A DNA stretch of 64,000 bases. It comes from Candidatus Moraniibacteriota bacterium. Its GTDB lineage: Bacteria; Patescibacteriota; Minisyncoccia; Moranbacterales; UBA9337. Numbering within the stretch: position 1 is the stretch's first letter; every line of letters starts with the position of its first letter. Below are positions 7,579 through 28,435 of this stretch, in pieces. The stretch is taken from assembly GCA_038331135.1 (NCBI GenBank), contig JBBQOS010000001.1, positions 9,140-73,139 on the forward strand. Reading direction: 5' to 3'. A model generated the notes under the pieces. It saw nothing but the letters and a program-made list of their open reading frames with translations. It did not search any database and had not been told where the DNA came from. The translations under genes and the position numbers were made by a program.

Positions 7579-8665
7579 CTATTTATTTCTTTTTTTCAAA
7601 AACGCTTCAATAAATTCATCAATTTCACCATTTAAAACTGCATCCGGATTAGTGCTTTCAAATTCTGTGCGATGATCTTTGACCAATTTATAGGGATGGA
7701 CCACATAAGATCGGATTTGGCTTCCCCATTCAGCGCTCTGATGCCCTCCTTTTAATTTTCTTTTTTCAGCTTCTTTTTGCTCGAGAAATTTTTTATGCAA
7801 TTTTGCCATCAATAATTTCATGGCTCTTTCTTTGTTTTGCAATTGTGACCGCTCTGTCTGACAGGTGGCTACAGTATTGGTTGGCAGATGAGTTATGCGA
7901 ACTGCACTGTCAGTAGTATTAACACTTTGACCTCCCGCTCCCGAAGATCGAAAAGTATCTATTTTTAAATCATCGCTTTTTATCTGCACTTCTTTTAAGC
8001 TCTCAATTACTGGCAAAACTTCAATCAGGGCGAAAGATGTTTGTCTCAAATTATCCGAATTAAAAGGAGATAGTCGCACCAAACGATGAGTTCCTGCTTC
8101 TCCCCTTAGTAATCCATAAGTATACAGTCCAGTTATTTCGAAAGTTACACTTTTTATTCCGGCCTCTTGTCCTCTTGATTCATCAATTATTTTTGTATTA
8201 AAATTTTTCAATTGTGCATAACGCAGATACATCCGCATCAACATTTCTGCCCAGTCCTGAGCATCTACTCCTCCCGCTCCGGCATGAATTGAAATTATTG
8301 CATTATTTTTATCATATTTATCGCCCAGCAATGTCTCAATTTCTAATTCCTTAAAGTCTTTTTCTAGCTGTAATATCTGTTCTGACAAATCTTTTTTTTC
8401 TTTTTCATTATCAACCACTTCCAGTATTTCTAAAAAATAATCAATTTGCCTAGAATCTTCTTCTATTTTTTGAATAATTTTTTTCAAAGATTCCAACTCT
8501 TGCATTATTAGATTTGCTTCTCCATGGTTATCCCAAAAACCTTCTGTATTTATTTTATCCTCCAACTCGCTGATTTTATTTTTTTTGTTTTCTACGTCAA
8601 AGGCATTCCCGCAAGGACGGGATTTTAGATTTTATTTCTTCTAATTTCTTTTTCAATTCAATCAT
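7579..8665 (-). CDS. prfB: peptide chain release factor 2, requires programmed +1 frameshift
   Basis: Frame 0 reads ATG(8665) MIELKKKLEEIKSKIPSLRECL, then TGA at 8599..8597. The +1 frame continues DVENKKNKISELEDKINTEGFW into the track ORF 7579..8565. SPF and GGQ motifs are present. Confidence 0.9.
8596..8602 (-). other. RF2 autoregulatory +1 frameshift site CTT TGA C
   Basis: The exact heptamer CTTTGAC was read on the minus strand. A weak SD-like GGGAA lies a few nt upstream. Confidence 0.85.
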
Positions 8666-10461: not shown

Positions 10462-11541
10462 ATGATAAACAAAATTGAAAGCATAAAAAAAGAATATTTA
10501 AATCTGCAAATTGAATTAAATTCTTCAGAAATTTCATCCAATCCATCCAAAATGGCTAAGTTGGGCAAGCGTCAATCTGAGTTGGAAAAAACGATAACTC
10601 TTATTAATCGTTTAGAATCTATAGAAAAAGAACTCAAAGAAAACGGAGAAATAATCAACTCTCACGAAGATGAAGAAATGACCGTTATGGCTATCGAGGC
10701 TAATTCAATTTTGCACAAAGAAAAAGAAGATTTAGAAAAAAAATTAGAATACCATCTTTTACCCAAAGATCCTAACGACTTCAAAGATGTTATTATCGAA
10801 ATTCGAGGCGGTGCGGGCGGTGATGAAGCCAGTCTTTTTGCAGCTACTCTTTTTAAGATGTACTCCCGTTACGCCGAAAATAATCATTGGAAAATATCAA
10901 TCATAAGTTCAAATACTACTGAAATGGGAGGCTACAAAGAAATTATTTTTACTCTTTCATCTTCAGATAATGAAAATCCTGTTTTTAGAAAAATGAAATA
11001 TGAATCGGGTGTGCATCGCGTGCAAAGAATTCCTGAAACTGAAAAATCCGGACGAATCCATACCTCTACGATAACTGTAGCAGTTTTACCCGAAGCTGAA
11101 GAAGTTGATATTAAAATTGATGCCAAGGATTTACGTATCGATACTTTTGCCTCATCGGGTCCTGGCGGTCAAAGTGTTAATACCACTATGAGCGCGGTTC
11201 GAATCACCCATATTCCAACTGGCATCGTAGCCTCTTGCCAGGATGCCAAATCTCAGCACAAAAATAAAGATCAGGCTATGAAAGTTTTGCGTTCTAGAGT
11301 AGTCCAAGTCCAATTGGATGAAGAATCTAAAAAATTAGGCGATGCGCGACTGAGCCAAATCGGAACTGGCGACCGCAGTGAAAAAATCAGAACCTACAAT
11401 TTTCCTCAAGATAGAATTACTGATCACCGCATCAAAGTTTCGTGGAGTAATATGGAAAATATTTTAGACGGAAACATCGATGAAATTATAAAAACTCTTC
11501 AGGAAGAAGATATCAAAAAGAAATTAGATAAGCAGTCATGA
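10462..11541 (+). CDS. prfA: peptide chain release factor 1
   Basis: It has the PET variant of the PxT motif (RIPETEKSGRIHTS) and the GGQ motif (SSGPGGQSVNTT). Confidence 0.92.
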   Translation: MINKIESIKKEYLNLQIELNSSEISSNPSKMAKLGKRQSELEKTITLINRLESIEKELKENGEIINSHEDEEMTVMAIEANSILHKEKEDLEKKLEYHLLPKDPNDFKDVIIEIRGGAGGDEASLFAATLFKMYSRYAENNHWKISIISSNTTEMGGYKEIIFTLSSSDNENPVFRKMKYESGVHRVQRIPETEKSGRIHTSTITVAVLPEAEEVDIKIDAKDLRIDTFASSGPGGQSVNTTMSAVRITHIPTGIVASCQDAKSQHKNKDQAMKVLRSRVVQVQLDEESKKLGDARLSQIGTGDRSEKIRTYNFPQDRITDHRIKVSWSNMENILDGNIDEIIKTLQEEDIKKKLDKQS

Positions 11542-11687: not shown

Positions 11688-12752
11688 ATGCCATTTGTCA
11701 AGAGTACCATTATAACAATTAAATCTTTTTATAAAAATAAAATAGATTCTTTTGATCTAGATCTTTTAATTGCACACGTGCTAAAAAAAGAAAGGGAGTT
11801 TATTTTAATTCATCCGGAACATATACTAACCAGCAATCAGCAATCAATAATCGGTGCAATGATTGATAGACGCCTTAAAAACGAGCCTCTGGCTTATATT
11901 TTGGGAGAAAAAGAGTTTTATAGCTTAAACTTCAAAATCAACCGCCACACCCTCATTCCACGCCCCGAGACGGAGCTGATGGTGGAGATGGCACTCGAAA
12001 ACATTAAGGCACACAAGCATGAGCCCATTAAAACATTGAAACATAACAAAATAAAAACAACTTCCACCAATAATAATACTACCATTCATCAGTCATCAGT
12101 CATTGATGTTATAGATATTGGCACGGGTAGTGGAAATATTGTTATTTCGCTTGCACATAACATAAATTATGGAGCATATGCCATAGAACATGGGACATGG
12201 GACATGAAACAAAAAGAAATAAAAAAATACAAACTAAAAAACACAGATTGCAAAAATATAACATCTGTGAACTGTGCACCAAAAACTGTAAACTATTTTG
12301 CTACAGATATTTCTCTTGACGCTTTAAAAATTGCTAAACAAAATGCTAAACTCCACAACGTAAACAAAAAAATAAAATTCCTCCATGGAAATCTCCTGAG
12401 TCCGTTTCTTAAATCTAAAATTATAAATCATAAATCTTCCCTATTAATTTTGGCCAATCTTCCCTACCTCTCCAAGGATATCTATGATTCCTGTGCCGAC
12501 AATGTAAGAAAATACGAACCCAAATCCGCCCTTTACTCAGCTAATTGTGGTCTCGCCCACTACATTACTTTACTTCCTCAAATAAAATTGCTAGCTACGA
12601 GCTACAAACTACAAGCTACAATCTTAATGGAAATAAGTCCCGAACAAAAAAAGATTCTCCCACCTATAACAAAAAAAATTTTTCCTCAAGCCAAAATAGA
12701 ATTCAAAAAGGATCTAGCACAGAAATGGAGAGTTTGTAAGATTACAATTTAG
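11688..12752 (+). CDS. prmC: release-factor glutamine N5-methyltransferase (PrmC/HemK) with insertions
   Basis: It has LAYILGEKEFYSLNFKINRHTLIPRPETE, SAM motif DIGTGSGNI, and catalytic tetrapeptide NLPY in place of NPPY. It sits directly after prfA. Confidence 0.75.
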   Translation: MPFVKSTIITIKSFYKNKIDSFDLDLLIAHVLKKEREFILIHPEHILTSNQQSIIGAMIDRRLKNEPLAYILGEKEFYSLNFKINRHTLIPRPETELMVEMALENIKAHKHEPIKTLKHNKIKTTSTNNNTTIHQSSVIDVIDIGTGSGNIVISLAHNINYGAYAIEHGTWDMKQKEIKKYKLKNTDCKNITSVNCAPKTVNYFATDISLDALKIAKQNAKLHNVNKKIKFLHGNLLSPFLKSKIINHKSSLLILANLPYLSKDIYDSCADNVRKYEPKSALYSANCGLAHYITLLPQIKLLATSYKLQATILMEISPEQKKILPPITKKIFPQAKIEFKKDLAQKWRVCKITI

Positions 12753-22780: not shown

Positions 22781-22903
22781 TAAATCTCTTTGCGGTCCTG
22801 AAAGCTATTCACTTTCAGCTCTCCCGACTGAGCTTCTCAAATACTAAGATGCTAAATTTCTAAAACAAAAAACACTAACCAAAAGATTAGTGAATTTAAT
22901 ATG

Positions 22904-22976
22904 TGCGCCGTGGGGGATTCGAACCCTCGACCATCAGCTTAAAAGGCTGTTGCTCTACCAACTGAGCTAACGGCGC
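22904..22976 (-). tRNA. tRNA-Lys (anticodon UUU)
   Basis: Manual cloverleaf: GCGCCGT/ACGGCGC acceptor, anticodon loop CTTTTAA, T-loop GGTTCGAATCC. Confidence 0.9.
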
Positions 22977-23262
22977 ATATTGCATATTTAGAAAAATAAA
23001 ATATTCCCCAATGCTGGGTTTATTTATTTCTTATACTTTATATTAATTTTAAGCAAATATAGAATACTATAAAATTATAGCTTTTTCAAAATAAAAGTCA
23101 ACCCCGCCAGAGATGAAAATGCTTAAATTAGTTACTTCCCTCTCGAACTGAGGCTAAATCAGCTTTTAAACACACGAACTATTGATTTTAATTAACCAGC
23201 ATGCTATTATTTTTAGGTATTGTTTTTGATTATGTTTTCAGAAAAGCAGAAGTCTATAGAGT

Positions 23263-23334
23263 GGCGATCATAGTTCAGTGGTAGAACATCGGTTTGTGGT
23301 ACCGAGTATCAGGGTCCGATTCCCTGTGATCGCC
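23263..23334 (+). tRNA. tRNA-His (anticodon GUG) with encoded G-1
   Basis: Acceptor GCGATCA/TGATCGC, an extra 5' G opposite discriminator C, and anticodon loop TTGTGGT. Confidence 0.9.
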
Positions 23335-23428
23335 CCTTTGTAGATTTCAAATAAAAATTATTTAATTAAAAATAAGCTCTTGTGGTGAAATAGATATCAC
23401 ACTTGGCGGAGTTTATCCCGCTTAACGT

Positions 23429-23501
23429 GCGCCCATAGCTCAACGGATAGAGTGTCTGGCTTCGGACCAGAAGGTTCTAGGTTCGAGTCCTAGTGGGCGC
23501 A
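23429..23501 (+). tRNA. tRNA-Arg (anticodon UCG)
   Basis: Acceptor GCGCCCA/TGGGCGC, anticodon stem TCTGG/CCAGA with loop CTTCGGA, and T-loop GGTTCGAGTCC. Confidence 0.9.
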
Positions 23502-23524
23502 CATTGTGCGGGAGACCAAGCGTT

Positions 23525-23597: not shown

Positions 23598-23852
23598 TCT
23601 GCCCGTAAAGATATTCGGGCAGTGTGGCAGGGCGAAATGCGGACTCGGTTTTGCGAAGCTATTTTCTGGGGAAAGGATTTGGCAAAACCTCGGCTGATTT
23701 TTGGTGGTGGTTTCCCGCCCGCAGAAAAGGGTCTGGGGAATGAATGCGGGCGGGGCTTGTGTTAACTACAAAATCATGGTAGGGTAGCTTCAGAAGAAAT
23801 CCTTTGGATTTCTCGAAAATTGTACATTCACAAACTAAACAAGGAGACGACA
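23598..23852 (+). promoter_or_regulatory. structured 5' leader of trpS (copy A of inverted-repeat leader)
   Basis: Hairpins are CTGCCCG/CGGGCAG (23599-23622), GTTTTGC/GCAAAAC (23648-23688), CCCGCCCGCA/TGCGGGCGGG (23714-23754) and AGAAATCC/GGATTTCT (23793-23813). An AAGGAG SD lies 7 nt before the ATG. Confidence 0.6.
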
Positions 23853-24845
23853 ATGGAAACAGTTCTATCAGGAATCCGCGCCACGGGGCGCCTACATTTT
23901 GGCAACTTTCTTGGAGCCGTGCAAAACTTCGTGAAGTTCCAACAACCCGGCAATACCTGCCTCTACTTCATCGCCGATTGGCACACACTGACAACACTCG
24001 AAAATCCAGAAGATCTTCGAGGTAATCTGGTTGAGATTGTGAAAGATTACATTGCCGCTGGTCTCGATCCAGAGCAATCAATCATTTACGCTCAGTCAAG
24101 TGTGCCGGAAATCTCCGAACTGTGTCTGTATCTTTCCATGATTCAGCCAATTGGTGAGCTTGAACGCGTTCCGACATTCAAAGATTTGATTCGTAAGAAT
24201 CCAGACAACGTGAATCTTGGGCTCGTGACCTATCCCGTTCTTATGGCGGCAGATATTCTCGGTCCTAAAGCGACACTCGTGCCGGTTGGCGAGGATCAGA
24301 TTCCAAATGTTGAAATGGCGCGCAATCTCGCGAACAGATTCAACAAACGTTTTGGAAACACCTTCGTCATCCCCGAGATGATGGCGCAAATGATAAAAGT
24401 GCCAGGGCTTGACGGCGCAAAGATGGGAAAATCGGAAGCGGACAACGCTATCGACATCAATGTCTCTATTGAAGCAATCCGCGACCAGTATCTGAAGAAG
24501 GGAATTACGGATCCACAACGTCTCCGAGTTACTGATCCCGGCGATCCATACAATCGTTGCCAGTCTGTGTACCCTGTGCACGAACTGGTGACGAATGGCG
24601 AGACAACAACTCGAGAGATTGCCAATCTCTGCATCTCGGCTCAAATCGGCTGTGTTGCCTGTAAGCATCGTTTGGTTGATGGCATCGCAAAGATTCTGGA
24701 ACCCTTTCAGGAAAAACGTGCCGGTCTCGTCAACCAAAATGATTACGTCAAAGATGTACTTCATGAGGGTGGCAAGAAAGCTCGCGTCAGAATCAAGGCA
24801 ACCACCGAGCTTGTTCGAGAGAGAATGGGCATTGTTCTCTATTAA
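23853..24845 (+). CDS. trpS: tryptophanyl-tRNA synthetase (C-x23-C-x6-C-x2-C type)
   Basis: It has a HIGH-like HFGN, YFIADWHTLT, YPVLMAADIL, VPVGEDQ and a KMSKS-like KMGKS, and is 330 aa. I place the start at ATG 23853 (SD AAGGAG), not the track's 23820. Confidence 0.85.
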   Translation: METVLSGIRATGRLHFGNFLGAVQNFVKFQQPGNTCLYFIADWHTLTTLENPEDLRGNLVEIVKDYIAAGLDPEQSIIYAQSSVPEISELCLYLSMIQPIGELERVPTFKDLIRKNPDNVNLGLVTYPVLMAADILGPKATLVPVGEDQIPNVEMARNLANRFNKRFGNTFVIPEMMAQMIKVPGLDGAKMGKSEADNAIDINVSIEAIRDQYLKKGITDPQRLRVTDPGDPYNRCQSVYPVHELVTNGETTTREIANLCISAQIGCVACKHRLVDGIAKILEPFQEKRAGLVNQNDYVKDVLHEGGKKARVRIKATTELVRERMGIVLY

Positions 24846-24860
24846 GATCGAGTATACTTA

Positions 24861-24902
24861 ATGGGCACCTAAAACCGCAAGATTTTAGGTGCCCATTTTT
24901 TA
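24861..24902 (+). terminator. rho-independent terminator after trpS
   Basis: ATGGGCACCTAAAA-CCGCAAGA-TTTTAGGTGCCCAT is followed by TTTTTT. Confidence 0.8.
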
Positions 24903-24904
24903 AT

Positions 24905-24948
24905 TTGACAACGATAGCCTAACCATGATAAGCTTACTCATGGTTAGG
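24905..24948 (+). promoter_or_regulatory. candidate promoter (TTGACA) overlapped by 11-bp perfect palindrome
   Basis: TTGACA is at 24905-24910, with TGATAAGCT as a possible extended -10. The palindrome is CCTAACCATGA-N9-TCATGGTTAGG at 24918-24948. Confidence 0.4.
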
Positions 24949-24974
24949 TTGCTGTACATTTATAGATACTAAAA

Positions 24975-25226
24975 CTCACATCTGGTTCCCTTGATTAATC
25001 AAGGGGTTGGGGCTAGATAGTTTCGCGATATACTATCCGAGACAAAGTGGTCTTTGCATAAGTGAAGACTCGGCATTCCTCCGTAATCATAGGAAAAACC
25101 GAAATCGGCTGAAAAGCATAGAGTCGGTATGAGTCCCGAGAGTAATCAAGGGAGAAGTAAGGTGGCACCGCGGAAATCCGCCCTTACGATATGAGCAATT
25201 TTGCTTGTATCGCAAGGGCGGTTTTT
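24975..25226 (+). promoter_or_regulatory. T-box riboswitch leader (antiterminator/terminator clearly readable; Stem I not resolved)
   Basis: The T-box sequence is GTAAGG-TGGCACC-GCGG-AAAT-CCGC-CCTTAC (25157-25187). The overlapping terminator is CCGCCCTTACGATATGAGCAA/TTGCTTGTATCGCAAGGGCGG plus TTTTT (25178-25226). Confidence 0.75.
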
Positions 25227-25255
25227 CATTTATTAACTCTTAAAACAACATTACT

Positions 25256-26320
25256 ATGAGTAAAGACAATCACTGCTACAAAGAACCAAATATAGAAACA
25301 AATATGTTTGAGGTTCAACAAACAAATAAACATGAGAAATTGATTTTTGGATCAGACGCAAAGTCTGGTCTGAAAATTATTCTCGCCATTCATAATACTA
25401 CCTTAGGGCCAAGTACCGGTGGTACACGAATGGCACTCGTCCCAGAAAAAACAGCTATTGATGAAGCTCTCCGTCTTTCGTATGCAATGACATTTAAATG
25501 CGCGATTATGGATGAACCTTTCGGTGGTTCAAAAGCTGTTATTATTGGTGATCCATCAAAACCAAAATCAAAAGAATTTCTCCACGCTCTTGGTGATTTT
25601 ATTGAATCACTCGGCGGAGCATTCCTGACTGGTGTAGATATGGGTCTTTCGTTAGAGGATGCAAAAATTATCGGCGAGCGGACAAAATATATTTTTAACT
25701 CCCAAGGTTCTTCTGGTGTTACTACTGCCCATGGCGTTTTCAAGGGTATTAAGGAAACGGTCTCTTATGTGTTACATAAAAACAGACTAAAGGATGTACG
25801 TATCGCGGTCCAAGGACTTGGGGCTGTCGGCGGTACGCTTGTTGAACTACTCTTTGCTGAAGGTGCGAGGGTTTTTGTTTCAGATATTGATCCTAAAATG
25901 ACAGAGAAGTATAAAATGATGGCAACCGTTGTTGATAATGATACGATACACAGTATTGATTGTGATGTATTTGCGCCTTGTGCTGTTGGAGAAATTGTCA
26001 ATGATAAAAGCATCAAGGAATTTCGGTGTAAGATTATTGCTGGAGGTGCCAACAATCAATTAAAAGACGAAACCAAACATGCCAAGGAATTACACTCTAT
26101 GGGAATCCTTCATGCTCCAGATTTTGTAATTAATGGTGGTGGTGTATGCCATGGTATGTGTGAAGTAAAAGGAATTGATGTGTCCAACGCTCTTAAAAAG
26201 ACAGATATTATCCCAAGTATATTGCGTACCATTTATGATCGGTCAAAGCAAACAAATACACCACCGCTCCATATAGCCTATGAAATAGCCTATGAAAAAC
26301 TCAAAGTCACCAAAAAATAA
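25256..26320 (+). CDS. Glu/Leu/Phe/Val-family amino-acid dehydrogenase (substrate unknown)
   Basis: It has LGPSTGGTRM...ALRLSYAMTFKCAIMDEPFGGSKAVIIGDP (catalytic Lys context) and a Rossmann motif VQGLGAVGG. Confidence 0.8.
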   Translation: MSKDNHCYKEPNIETNMFEVQQTNKHEKLIFGSDAKSGLKIILAIHNTTLGPSTGGTRMALVPEKTAIDEALRLSYAMTFKCAIMDEPFGGSKAVIIGDPSKPKSKEFLHALGDFIESLGGAFLTGVDMGLSLEDAKIIGERTKYIFNSQGSSGVTTAHGVFKGIKETVSYVLHKNRLKDVRIAVQGLGAVGGTLVELLFAEGARVFVSDIDPKMTEKYKMMATVVDNDTIHSIDCDVFAPCAVGEIVNDKSIKEFRCKIIAGGANNQLKDETKHAKELHSMGILHAPDFVINGGGVCHGMCEVKGIDVSNALKKTDIIPSILRTIYDRSKQTNTPPLHIAYEIAYEKLKVTKK

Positions 26321-27425
26321 TCCGATTTCAGATCGAGTTAAAAACATACAATACTCGGCAATCAGAAAAAGTTTTACCACCGGATCGAGTAAAAATATCA
26401 TAAATGCGACCATCGGTCGTCCTGATTTTGATGTGTCGAGTGAAGTCAAAGAACAAGCAAAATTACATATTGATCTCGGACATAATGCATATACGGAAAC
26501 AAAAGGTGTGTTGTCTCTACGACAAGCAATATCCGAATATTTACGAAAAAAGAATATCAGCCGCACCGCAGATGAAATCATTGTTACATCCGGTACAACC
26601 TCTGCAATTTTTATGGTGATATCCTCTCTCGTTAATCCCGATGATGAAGTGATTATTTTTGAACCATATTTCGTAGCGTATCCTGAAGTAATAAAAATGG
26701 TTGGCGGCAAATGCATCATTCTAAAAACGACTTCTGATTTTCACCCAGACATCGCGTTGTTAGAAAAAACTGTTACAAAAAAGACAAAATTGATAATTAT
26801 AAATAGTCCAAACAATCCTACCGGTGCGGTGTACTCGTCAGAAACAATAAATCATATTGTGCGTATTGCGAAGAAAGTAGGTGCGTACATTCTTTCGGAC
26901 GAAATTTATCACGATTTCATATATGGTGAGACTCCATATTATTCGCCCGCCGAAATATATAGCAAAGCGATAATCGTTGACGGTCTTTCAAAATCAAAAG
27001 GTATGTCCGGCTGGAGAATAGGGTTTGTGGCAGGTCCTAAGAATATTATTGACGCTGTTGAAAAATTGCAACAGTTTACTTCAGTGTGTGCTCCTGCCCC
27101 GCTCCAGCATGCTTCAATCTTAGCTTTTACTGACCCGCTCGCCCCAAGTTACCTAGAAAAATACAAACAGAAAAGAAATTTGCTTATTGAAGGAATCAAG
27201 AATGAATATCAGGTAATAATACCCACTGGAGCTTTTTACCTATTTTTAGAAACACCAATTTCTGCTGATAGATTTACAGCTATTTTGGCAAAAAAAGGAC
27301 TAGCCGTGGTACCGGGTAGTGCGTTTGGTAACTACAAAAACTTTATTAGAATTTCGTATGCAGTCAGTGATAAAGAGATTGCACAAATGATTAAAATACT
27401 AAAAGATGCTGTTAAAGAAAAATGA
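26292..27425 (+). CDS. class I/II pyridoxal-phosphate aminotransferase (Asp/aromatic-type)
   Basis: It has N-terminal SAIRK, NSPNNPTG and the PLP-lysine context LSKSKGMSGWRIGF. It overlaps the dehydrogenase by 29 nt. Confidence 0.8.
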   Translation: MKNSKSPKNNPISDRVKNIQYSAIRKSFTTGSSKNIINATIGRPDFDVSSEVKEQAKLHIDLGHNAYTETKGVLSLRQAISEYLRKKNISRTADEIIVTSGTTSAIFMVISSLVNPDDEVIIFEPYFVAYPEVIKMVGGKCIILKTTSDFHPDIALLEKTVTKKTKLIIINSPNNPTGAVYSSETINHIVRIAKKVGAYILSDEIYHDFIYGETPYYSPAEIYSKAIIVDGLSKSKGMSGWRIGFVAGPKNIIDAVEKLQQFTSVCAPAPLQHASILAFTDPLAPSYLEKYKQKRNLLIEGIKNEYQVIIPTGAFYLFLETPISADRFTAILAKKGLAVVPGSAFGNYKNFIRISYAVSDKEIAQMIKILKDAVKEK

Positions 27426-27472: not shown

Positions 27473-28435
27473 TCAAGAGATGATTCCCTTGATTGCATGG
27501 AGCGTATCATGTTGGCTCTGTGGAAGCACATTGCCAATCACGTTGTTGAGAACAGTCACGACACCTTGCAGTTTGACACCGATTGGCTCCACGATGAGCG
27601 CCATACCCTTGGCAAAATACTTGGTGCTGATCAAAAATTTCTCAGGACCAAAAACATTTTGAACAAGTTTATGAATTCCGTTCGGCGTATACCAATGAGA
27701 CAGGAAGAATCCATCTCTACCTTGTGTCTGCCCAACAATCTGAAGGGCCGAGATAGATGGAATTGAGCCACTGGAAACCTGCCTTTGTATTGCCGAAAGA
27801 GAATCCCTCACAGCATTCTTCGTGGTTTCCTCGTCGAAAGTCGAGACCTTGGCTCGAACACCTATCGATAGGAGCTCTCTCTTTACCGAGAATCCTATCC
27901 AATCGAACAAGAATTCTTCGCCGAGAATCCGACCGTTCCGAAGATACTCGTCGTATCCACAGAACGGATATCCGGATTCCGGTTCAGCTTTGAAGAAGCT
28001 CTGACAGTTGTAGACCCCTATAATGAGGCGCCGGGGCTTACTCGCGATCTGCTGGCAAATGACGGAAATCTCACCCGGCAAGAATGTCATCTCCACACCA
28101 TGGTCGATGAACGGCTTGAGGATGGAAGACCTTGCCCGTTCGACTTGTTTAGGTGCAAGGTCGTTGAATACAACCTTGGAAACATACACCCCTATTCGGG
28201 AGAACATGTCCTCAAGAATCACCTTTGGATCACGACAACCGACGGCTCCGCCGAGTGTGATGATATCTTCGCAATCGATTTCTCGATACGCCGCAAGAGT
28301 AGCATCCAATTCCCCTTGGTTATCCGTCGTCATCTCTTCCGTTTCGTACGTACTGGACTGAGCGTCCCAGAAAGCCTTTTGGCCTTCGACTGTGAGGTTT
28401 GGCTTTTGCCAACCATCTTCTCTTGACTTACTCAT
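27473..28435 (-). CDS. hypothetical protein, weak class I SAM-methyltransferase-like N-terminal half plus unknown C-terminal domain
   Basis: It has FWDAQSSTYE, a motif I-like ITLGGAVGCRDP and a motif II-like VVFNDLAPKQVERA. An AAGGAG SD is present. Its ATG overlaps the upstream stop (ATGAGTAA). Confidence 0.35.
   Translation of the reverse strand: MSKSREDGWQKPNLTVEGQKAFWDAQSSTYETEEMTTDNQGELDATLAAYREIDCEDIITLGGAVGCRDPKVILEDMFSRIGVYVSKVVFNDLAPKQVERARSSILKPFIDHGVEMTFLPGEISVICQQIASKPRRLIIGVYNCQSFFKAEPESGYPFCGYDEYLRNGRILGEEFLFDWIGFSVKRELLSIGVRAKVSTFDEETTKNAVRDSLSAIQRQVSSGSIPSISALQIVGQTQGRDGFFLSHWYTPNGIHKLVQNVFGPEKFLISTKYFAKGMALIVEPIGVKLQGVVTVLNNVIGNVLPQSQHDTLHAIKGIIS

Follow-up and report, generated by a model that had tools for sequence, protein, structure and literature searches.

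A probable tryptophan T-box with a truncated Stem I and an intrinsic terminator upstream of a dehydrogenase-aminotransferase operon in Candidatus Moranbacteria

Introduction

T-box leaders are divided into classes according to the architecture of their tRNA-binding half. Class I leaders combine a long Stem I, which carries the interdigitated T-loop motifs (IDTM), with a Stem II and act on transcription; class II leaders are specific for glycine and lack Stem II; class III leaders have a short Stem I with the specifier in its apical loop; and class IV leaders have an intermediate Stem I with its specifier placed within a bulge on the side, and no IDTM (PMC10482949). Classes III and IV are mostly translational and are exemplified by actinobacterial ileS leaders (PMC10482949). 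The IDTM is generally required by transcriptional T-boxes for kinetic reasons, the kink-turn (K-turn) is considered essential for T-boxes with a short Stem I and a Stem II, and whether a T-box can function without a K-turn has been posed as an open question (PMC7583486). For the T-box database, truncated-Stem I (translational) T-boxes were sought in Actinobacteria alone, besides the matches of the Rfam model (PMC7778990), and our full-text literature searches, within the library that could be searched, returned no T-box from the Candidate Phyla Radiation (CPR), Patescibacteria or Parcubacteria. Here, we analyse a leader located in a 64,000-nt stretch of contig JBBQOS010000001.1 (assembly GCA_038331135.1) of a Candidatus Moraniibacteriota bacterium. 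This whole stretch is referred to as the window, and all positions are window positions. The leader precedes an operon encoding an amino-acid dehydrogenase and an aminotransferase, and we conclude that positions 24974-25226 are very probably a Trp-specific T-box controlling transcription of this operon in Candidatus Moranbacteria, a CPR lineage. Judged by its conservation in related loci, the element appears to be a genuine T-box of unusual build.

Results

A total of 40 related loci, designated here by L numbers, were retrieved when the dehydrogenase was used to search genome and metagenome collections. The same leader was found upstream of the dehydrogenase gene in 29 of the 31 loci with enough upstream DNA, the exceptions being L013 and L028, and 27 leaders, including that of the window, remained after duplicate removal. 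There is one T-box core per related locus and a single one in the window, with none upstream of the window's trpS. Minus-strand T-box matches in L018 and L019 consisted of a single motif only and were taken as chance. The dehydrogenases of the leaders compared are 62-88% identical. All features of the leader described below lie on the plus strand.

The 3' part of the leader contains two alternative structures. ViennaRNA folded positions 25153-25188 (-11.6 kcal/mol) into an antiterminator (25157-25187) composed of helix A1, GUAAGG/CCUUAC (25157-62/25182-87), the 7-nt T-box bulge UGGCACC (25163-69) and helix A2, GCGG/CCGC (25170-73/25178-81), closed by the loop AAAU; an earlier reading of this DNA, made from the letters and their open reading frames (ORFs) and hereafter called the sequence-only reading, had described the same structure. 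The T-box sequence AAGGUGGCACCGCGG...CCGCCCUUAC aligns to the RF00230 consensus with high posterior probability, and A1 and A2 covary among 23 leaders (UA:9/CG:6/GC:4; AU:16/GC:6; GC:12/AU:6). The antiterminator is followed by an intrinsic terminator, consisting of a hairpin at 25178-25221 and a U5 tract at 25222-25226, which ends 29 nt before the start codon. Its fold (25170-25232) has an energy of -34.9 kcal/mol (z = -8.2), a value that none of the shuffles matched. The terminator takes the 3' strands of A2 and A1, and thus the two structures are mutually exclusive. This exclusivity and the U5 tract had been recognized in the sequence-only reading, which counted 21 bp in a stem that actually has 19 pairs and two 1x1 mismatches.

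A competing hairpin followed by U5-7 is present in all leaders examined. It overlaps the 3' strands of the antiterminator, the distance from its end to the start codon is 6-59 nt, and any recognizable Shine-Dalgarno (SD) sequence lies downstream of it. Two other modes of control have precedents: class III/IV Stem I structures mostly serve translational regulation by SD sequestration (PMC10482949), and one relative, L028, uses a Trp leader peptide, which would correspond to ribosome-mediated attenuation. However, with terminators in all leaders, the SD sequence outside the hairpin and no ORF with Trp codons in the window leader, the device is best explained as a transcription attenuator, and we consider either of these modes extremely unlikely.

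The sequence-only reading could not fold a canonical Stem I. This is accounted for by a truncated, class IV-like stem at 24980-25018 that holds its specifier in a side bulge, so that the specifier, which that reading had been unable to assign, can be placed. The stem consists of a lower helix (24980-24986/25012-25018) and a cap hairpin (24987-24994/24999-25006) with the loop UUAA; the 3' side bulge (25006/7-25011) contains the proposed specifier UGG at 25008-25010, followed by the purine G25011. There is no S-turn in this stem. As a single sequence it folds with -16.6 kcal/mol (z = -3.0), and RNAalifold recovered the lower helix and the cap, as well as Stem II, from 19 window-type 5' halves without any prior structure. 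The two Stem I helices are paired in 98.9% and 99.1% of cells, with double changes in 4 and 3 pairs, respectively. The cap hairpin varies across leaders from 7 to 18 bp and shows no conserved T-loop motifs. UGGG is invariant in 27/27 leaders.

Two styles of Stem I were distinguished. In the window type (type A, 22 leaders), the lower helix is topped by a cap hairpin that differs in length among leaders, and the 3' side bulge reads G-U-U-G-G-(G); the apical-loop type (type B; L006, L007, L026, L027 and L030) has a 4-bp stem with the loop AGAAUGGG above a canonical K-turn. Besides the overlapping GGG, only UGG plus a purine is common to the side bulge GUUGGG and the loop AGAAUGGG, and GAA-UGG-G fits the canonical order of GAA, codon and purine. 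Both the bulge and the loop hold overlapping triplets, and the leader could in principle be a T-box reading another one. In the window type this would be GGG (Gly), UUG (Leu) or GUU (Val), and in the apical-loop relatives AUG (Met). Of these relatives, L006 and L007 combine their loop with a UGGU bulge, with which A73 tRNAs, for instance tRNA-Met, would be compatible too. However, UGG and GGG alone are shared by both styles. Bacterial tRNA-Gly has U73 and would need UGGA, and tRNA-Leu and tRNA-Val have A73, a misfit with the UGGC bulge of the window. Moreover, L026, L027 and L030 have the same apical loop together with UGGC, in L026 and L030 with an adjoining G73 tRNA-Trp gene; UGG, again, is the triplet that sits within the canonical pattern; and all of the genomic linkage (trpS, tRNA-Trp, trpBA and a Trp-rich leader peptide) is to Trp. 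Recognition of a different triplet is therefore highly improbable, and UGG remains the preferred specifier.

The identity of the tRNA was approached through its discriminator base. ARAGORN detected ten tRNA-Trp(CCA) genes within the related loci, mostly between trpS and the leader. All ten carry G73-CCA, and the leader has a UGGC bulge in each of those loci. Because its pairing partner is G73-CCA, a UGGC bulge rules out tRNAs with A73, and Trp stays among the candidates. The prediction in the sequence-only reading that the bulge calls for a G73 tRNA and not for Leu, Ile, Val or Phe is thereby borne out. Together, the UGG-G specifier, the G73 genes, the adjacency of trpS and the Trp-linked regulation in L013 and L028 support tRNA-Trp as the effector.

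In L013, the operon is extended to an 80-aa ORF (no Pfam match)-trpB-trpA-dehydrogenase-aminotransferase (L013:616-5161), with trpB and trpA identified by the Pfam families PALP and Trp_syntA. A T-box of the same family, with a K-turn, the GUUGGG bulge, the UGG specifier and a UGGU bulge, stands ahead of this trpBA operon (L013:395-625). L028 has no T-box. Instead, a 26-codon leader ORF, MNKINYKILSINWWWFLWRWSRKVRP, and then a terminator are found ahead of the same operon at L028:2834-2985; the predicted peptide contains the stretch WWWFLWRW, with 5 Trp in 8 residues. From its sequence, this leader appears to be a classical trp attenuator that replaces the T-box in a relative of a CPR bacterium. 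Considering the T-boxes of L013 and the window together with the L028 attenuator, at least two different devices would report Trp shortage on the same operon.

Below Stem I, the leader is closed by a helix, P0, whose 5' strand ACU (24974-24976) pairs with AGU at 25046-25048. One strand of P0 directly follows a conserved UAAAA and the other directly precedes Stem II; in relatives, its homologue is the C-stem of the K-turn. It occurs in the same register in 19/19 window-type leaders, with variants such as ACUC/GAGU, AUCU/AGAU, ACCUU/AAGGU, AUCCU/AGGAU and GCCUU/GAGGC, and reaches at least 4 bp in 95% of leaders vs 39% in shuffles. In 13 of the 19 window-type leaders, the window's included, there is no tandem GA, and a hairpin of variable sequence is inserted on the 3' strand between Stem I and P0; in the window it is GUUUCG...CGAGAC (25020-25043; -9.0 kcal/mol, z = -5.8), and together with Stem I and P0 it makes up a three-way junction. 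A canonical GA K-turn and no inserted hairpin are found in the L004 clade, in L013 and in all apical-loop leaders, an example being AUC-UUU-GA-C-UCGGG / CCCGA-U-GA-GAU, and RF00230 aligns this K-turn as such.

The junction is followed by a miniature Stem II (25049-25070), with a 6-bp helix, GGUCUU/AAGACU, and an invariant loop, UGC-NNN-AGUG. Its cells are 100% paired, with double changes in 5/9 pairs. Only the AGUG/AGUA half of an S-turn is found, inside the invariant loop UGCNNNAGUG, of which Rfam aligns UAAGUG to uaAGUA; the apical-loop relatives retain a full S-turn (GUGAA...AAGUA) in Stem II. Next comes the Stem IIA/B pseudoknot with the F-box (25071-25094), formed by IIA, CGG 25071-73/CCG 25081-83, and IIB, UCCU 25077-80/AGGA 25091-94. 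IIA does not vary among the leaders. In IIB, 98.7% of cells are paired and two pairs covary, and L006, L007 and L013 have the compensatory variants GUUC/GAAC, GCUC/GAGC and AGACU/AGUCU, the last being that of L013.

A family-specific linker stem, an insertion relative to the Rfam model, lies at 25098-25128. Leaders of both Stem I styles have it. It comprises ACCGA (25098-25102)/UCGGU (25124-25128), a conserved internal loop (consensus UGUC...GGAG, AAUC...AGAG in the window) and an inner hairpin, GCU-GAAA-AGC. The helix measures 4-6 bp and the hairpin is variable. An anchored parse located the stem in 21/23 sequences, with about 12 distinct duplexes, among them AUCAA/UUGAU, GUUGA/UCAAU, AUCG/CGAU, AAGACA/UGUCUU and GGGCA/UGCUC; in the MAFFT alignment, in which the type-B rows are out of register, it is 77-81% paired (UA:10/CG:7, CG:14/AU:3/UA:3). 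The first part of the discriminator domain (25129-25156) consists of the purines AUGAG (25129-33), Stem III with UCCC/GGGA (25134-37/25150-53) and GAA (25154-56), and matches the described RRRxG-Stem III-AA motif (PMC7583486). The Stem III region folds with -7.1 kcal/mol, and every relative has a variable hairpin between GARAG-type purines and AA. The string UAUGAGUCCCGAGAGUAAUCAAGGG upstream of the T-box sequence, which had been taken as K-turn- or AGAGUA-like, is in fact made up of the 3' strand of the linker stem, the purine string and Stem III. As a separate observation, in the subclade of the window the 5' end of the leader, ACUCAUAUC (24974-24982), is complementary to GAUAUGAGU (25125-25133), just after the linker stem. 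Among L001, L011, L012, L014, L016 and L034, this pairing measures 9 bp in five leaders and 8 bp, with an AU-to-GC double change, in L016; in the window it has an interruption, and in L008 and L010 it is broken. An alternative pairing is one reading of it, the other being that it echoes GAGU, the P0 partner, by chance.

Taken as a whole and including IIA/IIB, the proposed structure of the 5' half is paired in 99.4% of 507 cells vs 31-57% when the partners are slid by 1-3 columns. Double-sided changes occur in 14/27 pairs, and 0/500 shuffles reached the observed values. The 3' half is paired in 89.8% of cells vs 38-57% after sliding. Here, the linker stem and Stem III were put out of order by MAFFT, RNAalifold consequently gave the antiterminator only, and the anchored parse was used instead; as this parse searches permissively, its shuffle controls discriminate only to a moderate degree. 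The argument for the linker stem and Stem III is thus drawn mainly from the variety of compensatory duplexes and the pair count of the 3' half, which suggest that both are real.

The sequence-only reading had also pointed to repeats that could compete with these helices. The strings CCCTTGATTA at 24988-24997 and TAATCAAGGG at 24996-25005 and 25143-25152 are where it placed them, and CTCGG (25069-25073) and the second CCGAG (25136-25140) each had to be moved by one base. Pairing of CCCUUGAUUA with 24996-25005 is the Stem I cap hairpin itself, and the other partner, 25143-25152 on the 3' side of the weak Stem III, is not conserved, being retained in the closest relative alone. The CUCGG/CCGAG strings belong to the 3' strand of the inserted hairpin, to the Stem II/IIA boundary and to Stem III, and their cross-pairings are not conserved either. 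One could see in these long-range pairings (24988-24997 with 25143-25152, and CTCGG with either CCGAG) an additional switch that opposes Stem I and Stem III: the complementarity between the 5' strand of the Stem I cap and the 3' side of Stem III extends over 10 nt in the window and 9 nt in L008, and the minimum free energy (MFE) fold of the whole leader uses it. However, L001, L011, L012, L034 and the majority of the other leaders lack it and have an unrelated strong hairpin as Stem III, a match as long occurred in 26/500 shuffles, and covariation favours the local cap hairpin. The MFE fold of the whole leader is misleading because it used this non-conserved pairing, and we relied on comparative analysis instead. 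Such an extra switch has very little probability in our view, and the local Stem I and Stem III are retained.

A number of observations weigh against the assignment of the leader as a Trp-specific T-box. At the gathering threshold, an Rfam search of the window returned three tRNAs only and no T-box. The RF00230 search that the sequence-only reading had proposed did produce a match (25027-25188) under permissive local settings, but the score was no more than 27.7 bits (E = 2.3e-4), against a gathering score of 93, and the alignment had 91 positions of Stem I deleted and 32 nt inserted; the T-box sequence itself was aligned very well. Relatives scored 27-72 bits, all below threshold, with the match just upstream of the dehydrogenase gene in 8/8 genome loci, and across the window and its relatives 72-91 model positions are deleted, with no AG bulge or distal loop (IDTM). 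The window thus lacks the IDTM platform; it also lacks the K-turn, in place of which it has the three-way junction, and its P0 is the weakest of all, with 3 bp and a C.A mismatch. The basal pair of A2 is G25170-C25181 and not the G.U pair described as an aminoacyl sensor (GU 10, GC 8 and AU 5 among 23 leaders, with G-C in the window and its close relatives). Eight leaders (L004, L006, L007, L016 and L021-L024) and also L013 have a UGGU bulge, the U of which could pair with G73 by wobble or with A73; the tRNA-Trp genes in which position 73 was checked come from UGGC loci, not from UGGU loci. No tRNA-Trp gene is present in the 64-kb window, unlike in many related loci, and the window's discriminator base is therefore taken from relatives. 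Lastly, the best NCBIfam match of the dehydrogenase, the ScyB Trp dehydrogenase model NF035922, scored 301.4 bits, below its cutoff of 600, and in the PDB a leucine dehydrogenase (LeuDH, 253 bits) and the Nostoc tryptophan dehydrogenase (TrpDH) 5b37 (243 bits) were matched about equally well, so that overall similarity is uninformative about its substrate.

The low Rfam score with its deleted Stem I, the missing K-turn and IDTM, the weak P0 and the basal G-C pair of A2 would also be expected of a decayed T-box relic, left as a constitutive terminator or an inert leader. This is very unlikely. Every helix is held by compensatory changes at the level of divergence of the dehydrogenases given above, no variation is seen in the specifier, the T-box bulge, the F-box or the purine strings, and a constitutive terminator of -35 kcal/mol before a conserved operon would silence it.

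The first gene of the operon (25256-26320, plus strand) encodes a 354-aa amino-acid dehydrogenase of the Glu/Leu/Phe/Val (ELFV) family (Pfam ELFV_dehydrog_N and ELFV_dehydrog). The second (26292-27425, plus strand) encodes a 377-aa class I/II pyridoxal phosphate-dependent aminotransferase (Pfam Aminotran_1_2, 220 bits); it overlaps the end of the dehydrogenase gene and follows it in every locus. An exact-protein look-up returned no record for the dehydrogenase. In its pocket, T54, G126 and G300 stand where LeuDH has L40, A113 and V294, G126 being common to TrpDH ('ITGQD'), and its family has an invariant motif of its own, GGVCHGMCEVKG. These substitutions suggest a pocket that is enlarged relative to LeuDH and fits a bulky substrate, and we propose that the enzyme is an indole-3-pyruvate/L-Trp dehydrogenase. 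The closest solved structures to the aminotransferase are the Thermus aspartate aminotransferase and the Pyrococcus aromatic aminotransferase 1dju. A T-box turns its genes on when the tRNA is uncharged, and the simplest reading is therefore that the enzyme pair makes Trp from indole-3-pyruvate.

In the mechanism that we envisage, transcription would start near 24941, and the anticodon CCA of tRNA-Trp would pair with the specifier UGG at 25008-25010 in the side bulge of the short Stem I. The three-way junction of P0, Stem I and the inserted hairpin, in place of a K-turn, would set Stem II and the IIA/B pseudoknot beside Stem I, where they may hold the codon-anticodon duplex in a clamp, as their counterparts do in class III/IV T-boxes of Actinobacteria. 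With an uncharged tRNA, G73-C-C-A would pair with U-G-G-C of the bulge (25163-25166), stabilizing the antiterminator and allowing RNA polymerase to read through. With a charged tRNA, the antiterminator would not be stabilized, and the hairpin 25178-25221 with U5 would stop transcription 29 nt short of the start codon. Once induced, the enzymes may raise the supply of Trp from indole-3-pyruvate, whether through reductive amination, through transamination, or in such a way that the dehydrogenase regenerates the amino donor.

The gene directly 5' of the leader is trpS, encoding tryptophan--tRNA ligase (23820-24845, plus strand; TIGR00233 trpS, 254 bits vs a cutoff of 176.75; Pfam tRNA-synt_1b), which has its own terminator at 24860-24897 and is next to the operon in many related loci. 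Between the two, a candidate promoter read from the sequence lies at 24905-24934 (plus strand), with the -35 box TTGACA at 24905-24910, an 18-nt spacer and an extended -10, TGaTAAGCT, at 24926-34; the predicted transcription start is around 24941. The pattern TTGACA-N-TGnTAAnnT occurs at the same place in L001, L008, L010 and L016. A consensus promoter scan missed this promoter because its -10 is weak. In the window, the extended -10 falls within the span of an 11-nt inverted repeat, CCTAACCATGA / TCATGGTTAGG (24918-24948), and L008 has an inverted repeat with another arm sequence at the same place; an operator and a 5' hairpin are possible roles.

The window has a G+C content of 34%, and its RecA is 94-96% identical to that of Candidatus Moranbacteria/Moraniibacteriota and Parcubacteria-group genomes, which places the window in the CPR/Patescibacteria. 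The labels of the metagenome-assembled genomes (MAGs) to which related contigs belong conflict with one another and are no safe basis for this assignment. Two PCRF/RF-1 proteins, which represent both release factors, and a PrmC-like methyltransferase are the products of genes at 7579-8565, 10462-11541 and 11688-12752; with RF1 and RF2 both present, this CPR lineage uses the standard genetic code, with no UGA recoding. Three tRNA genes lie just 5' of trpS at 22903-23502, Lys-UUU (minus strand), His-GUG (plus) and Arg-UCG (plus). On the other side of the operon, a conserved gene cluster, which we call the Trp island, was found at 27473-28967 (minus strand) and in L002, L003, L010, L011, L018-L020, L026 and L030. 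Besides trpS and tRNA-Trp, its members in most loci are a 320-aa protein and a protein with a YbaK-like aminoacyl-tRNA deacylase domain; in L026, the ybaK-like gene is flanked by two copies of tRNA-Trp. The 320-aa protein (orf320) has no Pfam or PDB match, and its single-sequence AlphaFold model (predicted local distance difference test, pLDDT, 36) is unusable. One 621-kb contig, JGI1356J14229_10000004, carries two copies of the operon about 206 kb apart (L024 and L025; 174770-181825 and 380500-387555), with leaders that are identical as far as compared.

Discussion

T-boxes are regarded as mainly a feature of Firmicutes and Actinobacteria, and the model by which they are detected fails on the leader family described here; a dedicated model could uncover unannotated amino-acid sensing in CPR genomes. 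Reviews assign to the IDTM the fast capture of tRNA in transcriptional T-boxes and regard IDTM-less T-boxes as translational, and here every member combines the absence of an IDTM with a terminator. Since one switch exists naturally in a K-turn form and in a three-way-junction form, the need for a K-turn can be compared directly. The regulon suggests a role in Trp salvage for an uncharacterized dehydrogenase-aminotransferase pair, and its clustering with trpS, tRNA-Trp, the YbaK-like deacylase and the 320-aa protein offers a testable handle on how ultra-small bacteria acquire Trp.

A broader proposal, which we put forward tentatively and with a little less than even confidence, is that Moranbacteria and related CPR bacteria possess an unannotated class of T-box that terminates transcription without an elbow platform and, in one clade, without a K-turn. 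The three-way junction and the linker stem (UGUC...GGAG) would arrange or supplement the contacts with the tRNA, and the switch would turn on a route from indole-3-pyruvate to Trp in hosts regarded as relying on other organisms for their amino acids.

Among described systems, the class IV leader of Actinomyces odontolyticus ileS resembles that of the window in having its specifier in a side bulge between two helices and no IDTM, and the class III leaders of Nocardia farcinica and Mycobacterium tuberculosis ileS have an apical-loop specifier like that of L006, L007, L026, L027 and L030. The Stem II domain with its IIA/B pseudoknot, the canonical discriminator and the T-box bulge are likewise common to both classes and to this family. 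The differences concern output, specificity and host: an intrinsic terminator takes the place of an SD sequestrator, Trp (UGG) would be sensed instead of Ile, the hosts are CPR bacteria and not Actinobacteria, and the regulated operon encodes a dehydrogenase and an aminotransferase and not an aminoacyl-tRNA synthetase. Structurally, the family differs in its 6-bp Stem II with a conserved 10-nt loop, in a conserved extra stem between IIA/B and Stem III and, in the clade of the window, in the three-way junction that replaces the K-turn.

With class I leaders (RF00230; Bacillus subtilis tyrS and the Firmicutes Trp T-boxes of trp genes and transporters), the window element shares the choice between antiterminator and terminator, the match of UGGN with the discriminator base, the F-box pseudoknot and the Stem III purine string, and it would likewise respond to the tRNA of one amino acid and control genes that supply it. 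It differs from them in lacking the long Stem I, the AG bulge, the distal loop platform, the specifier-loop S-turn and the K-turn. The regulated dehydrogenase has the same ELFV fold and length as Nostoc punctiforme ScyB (5b37) and the Leu and Phe dehydrogenases, and it shares with ScyB a Gly at the position of LeuDH A113, where phenylalanine dehydrogenases also have Gly; it differs from ScyB in falling below the family cutoff, in matching LeuDH about as well and in having its own motif. The classical trp leader-peptide attenuator, finally, fulfils an equivalent task for this operon in L028, with the difference that the leader of the window is proposed to sense tRNA-Trp by RNA-RNA pairing rather than by ribosome stalling.

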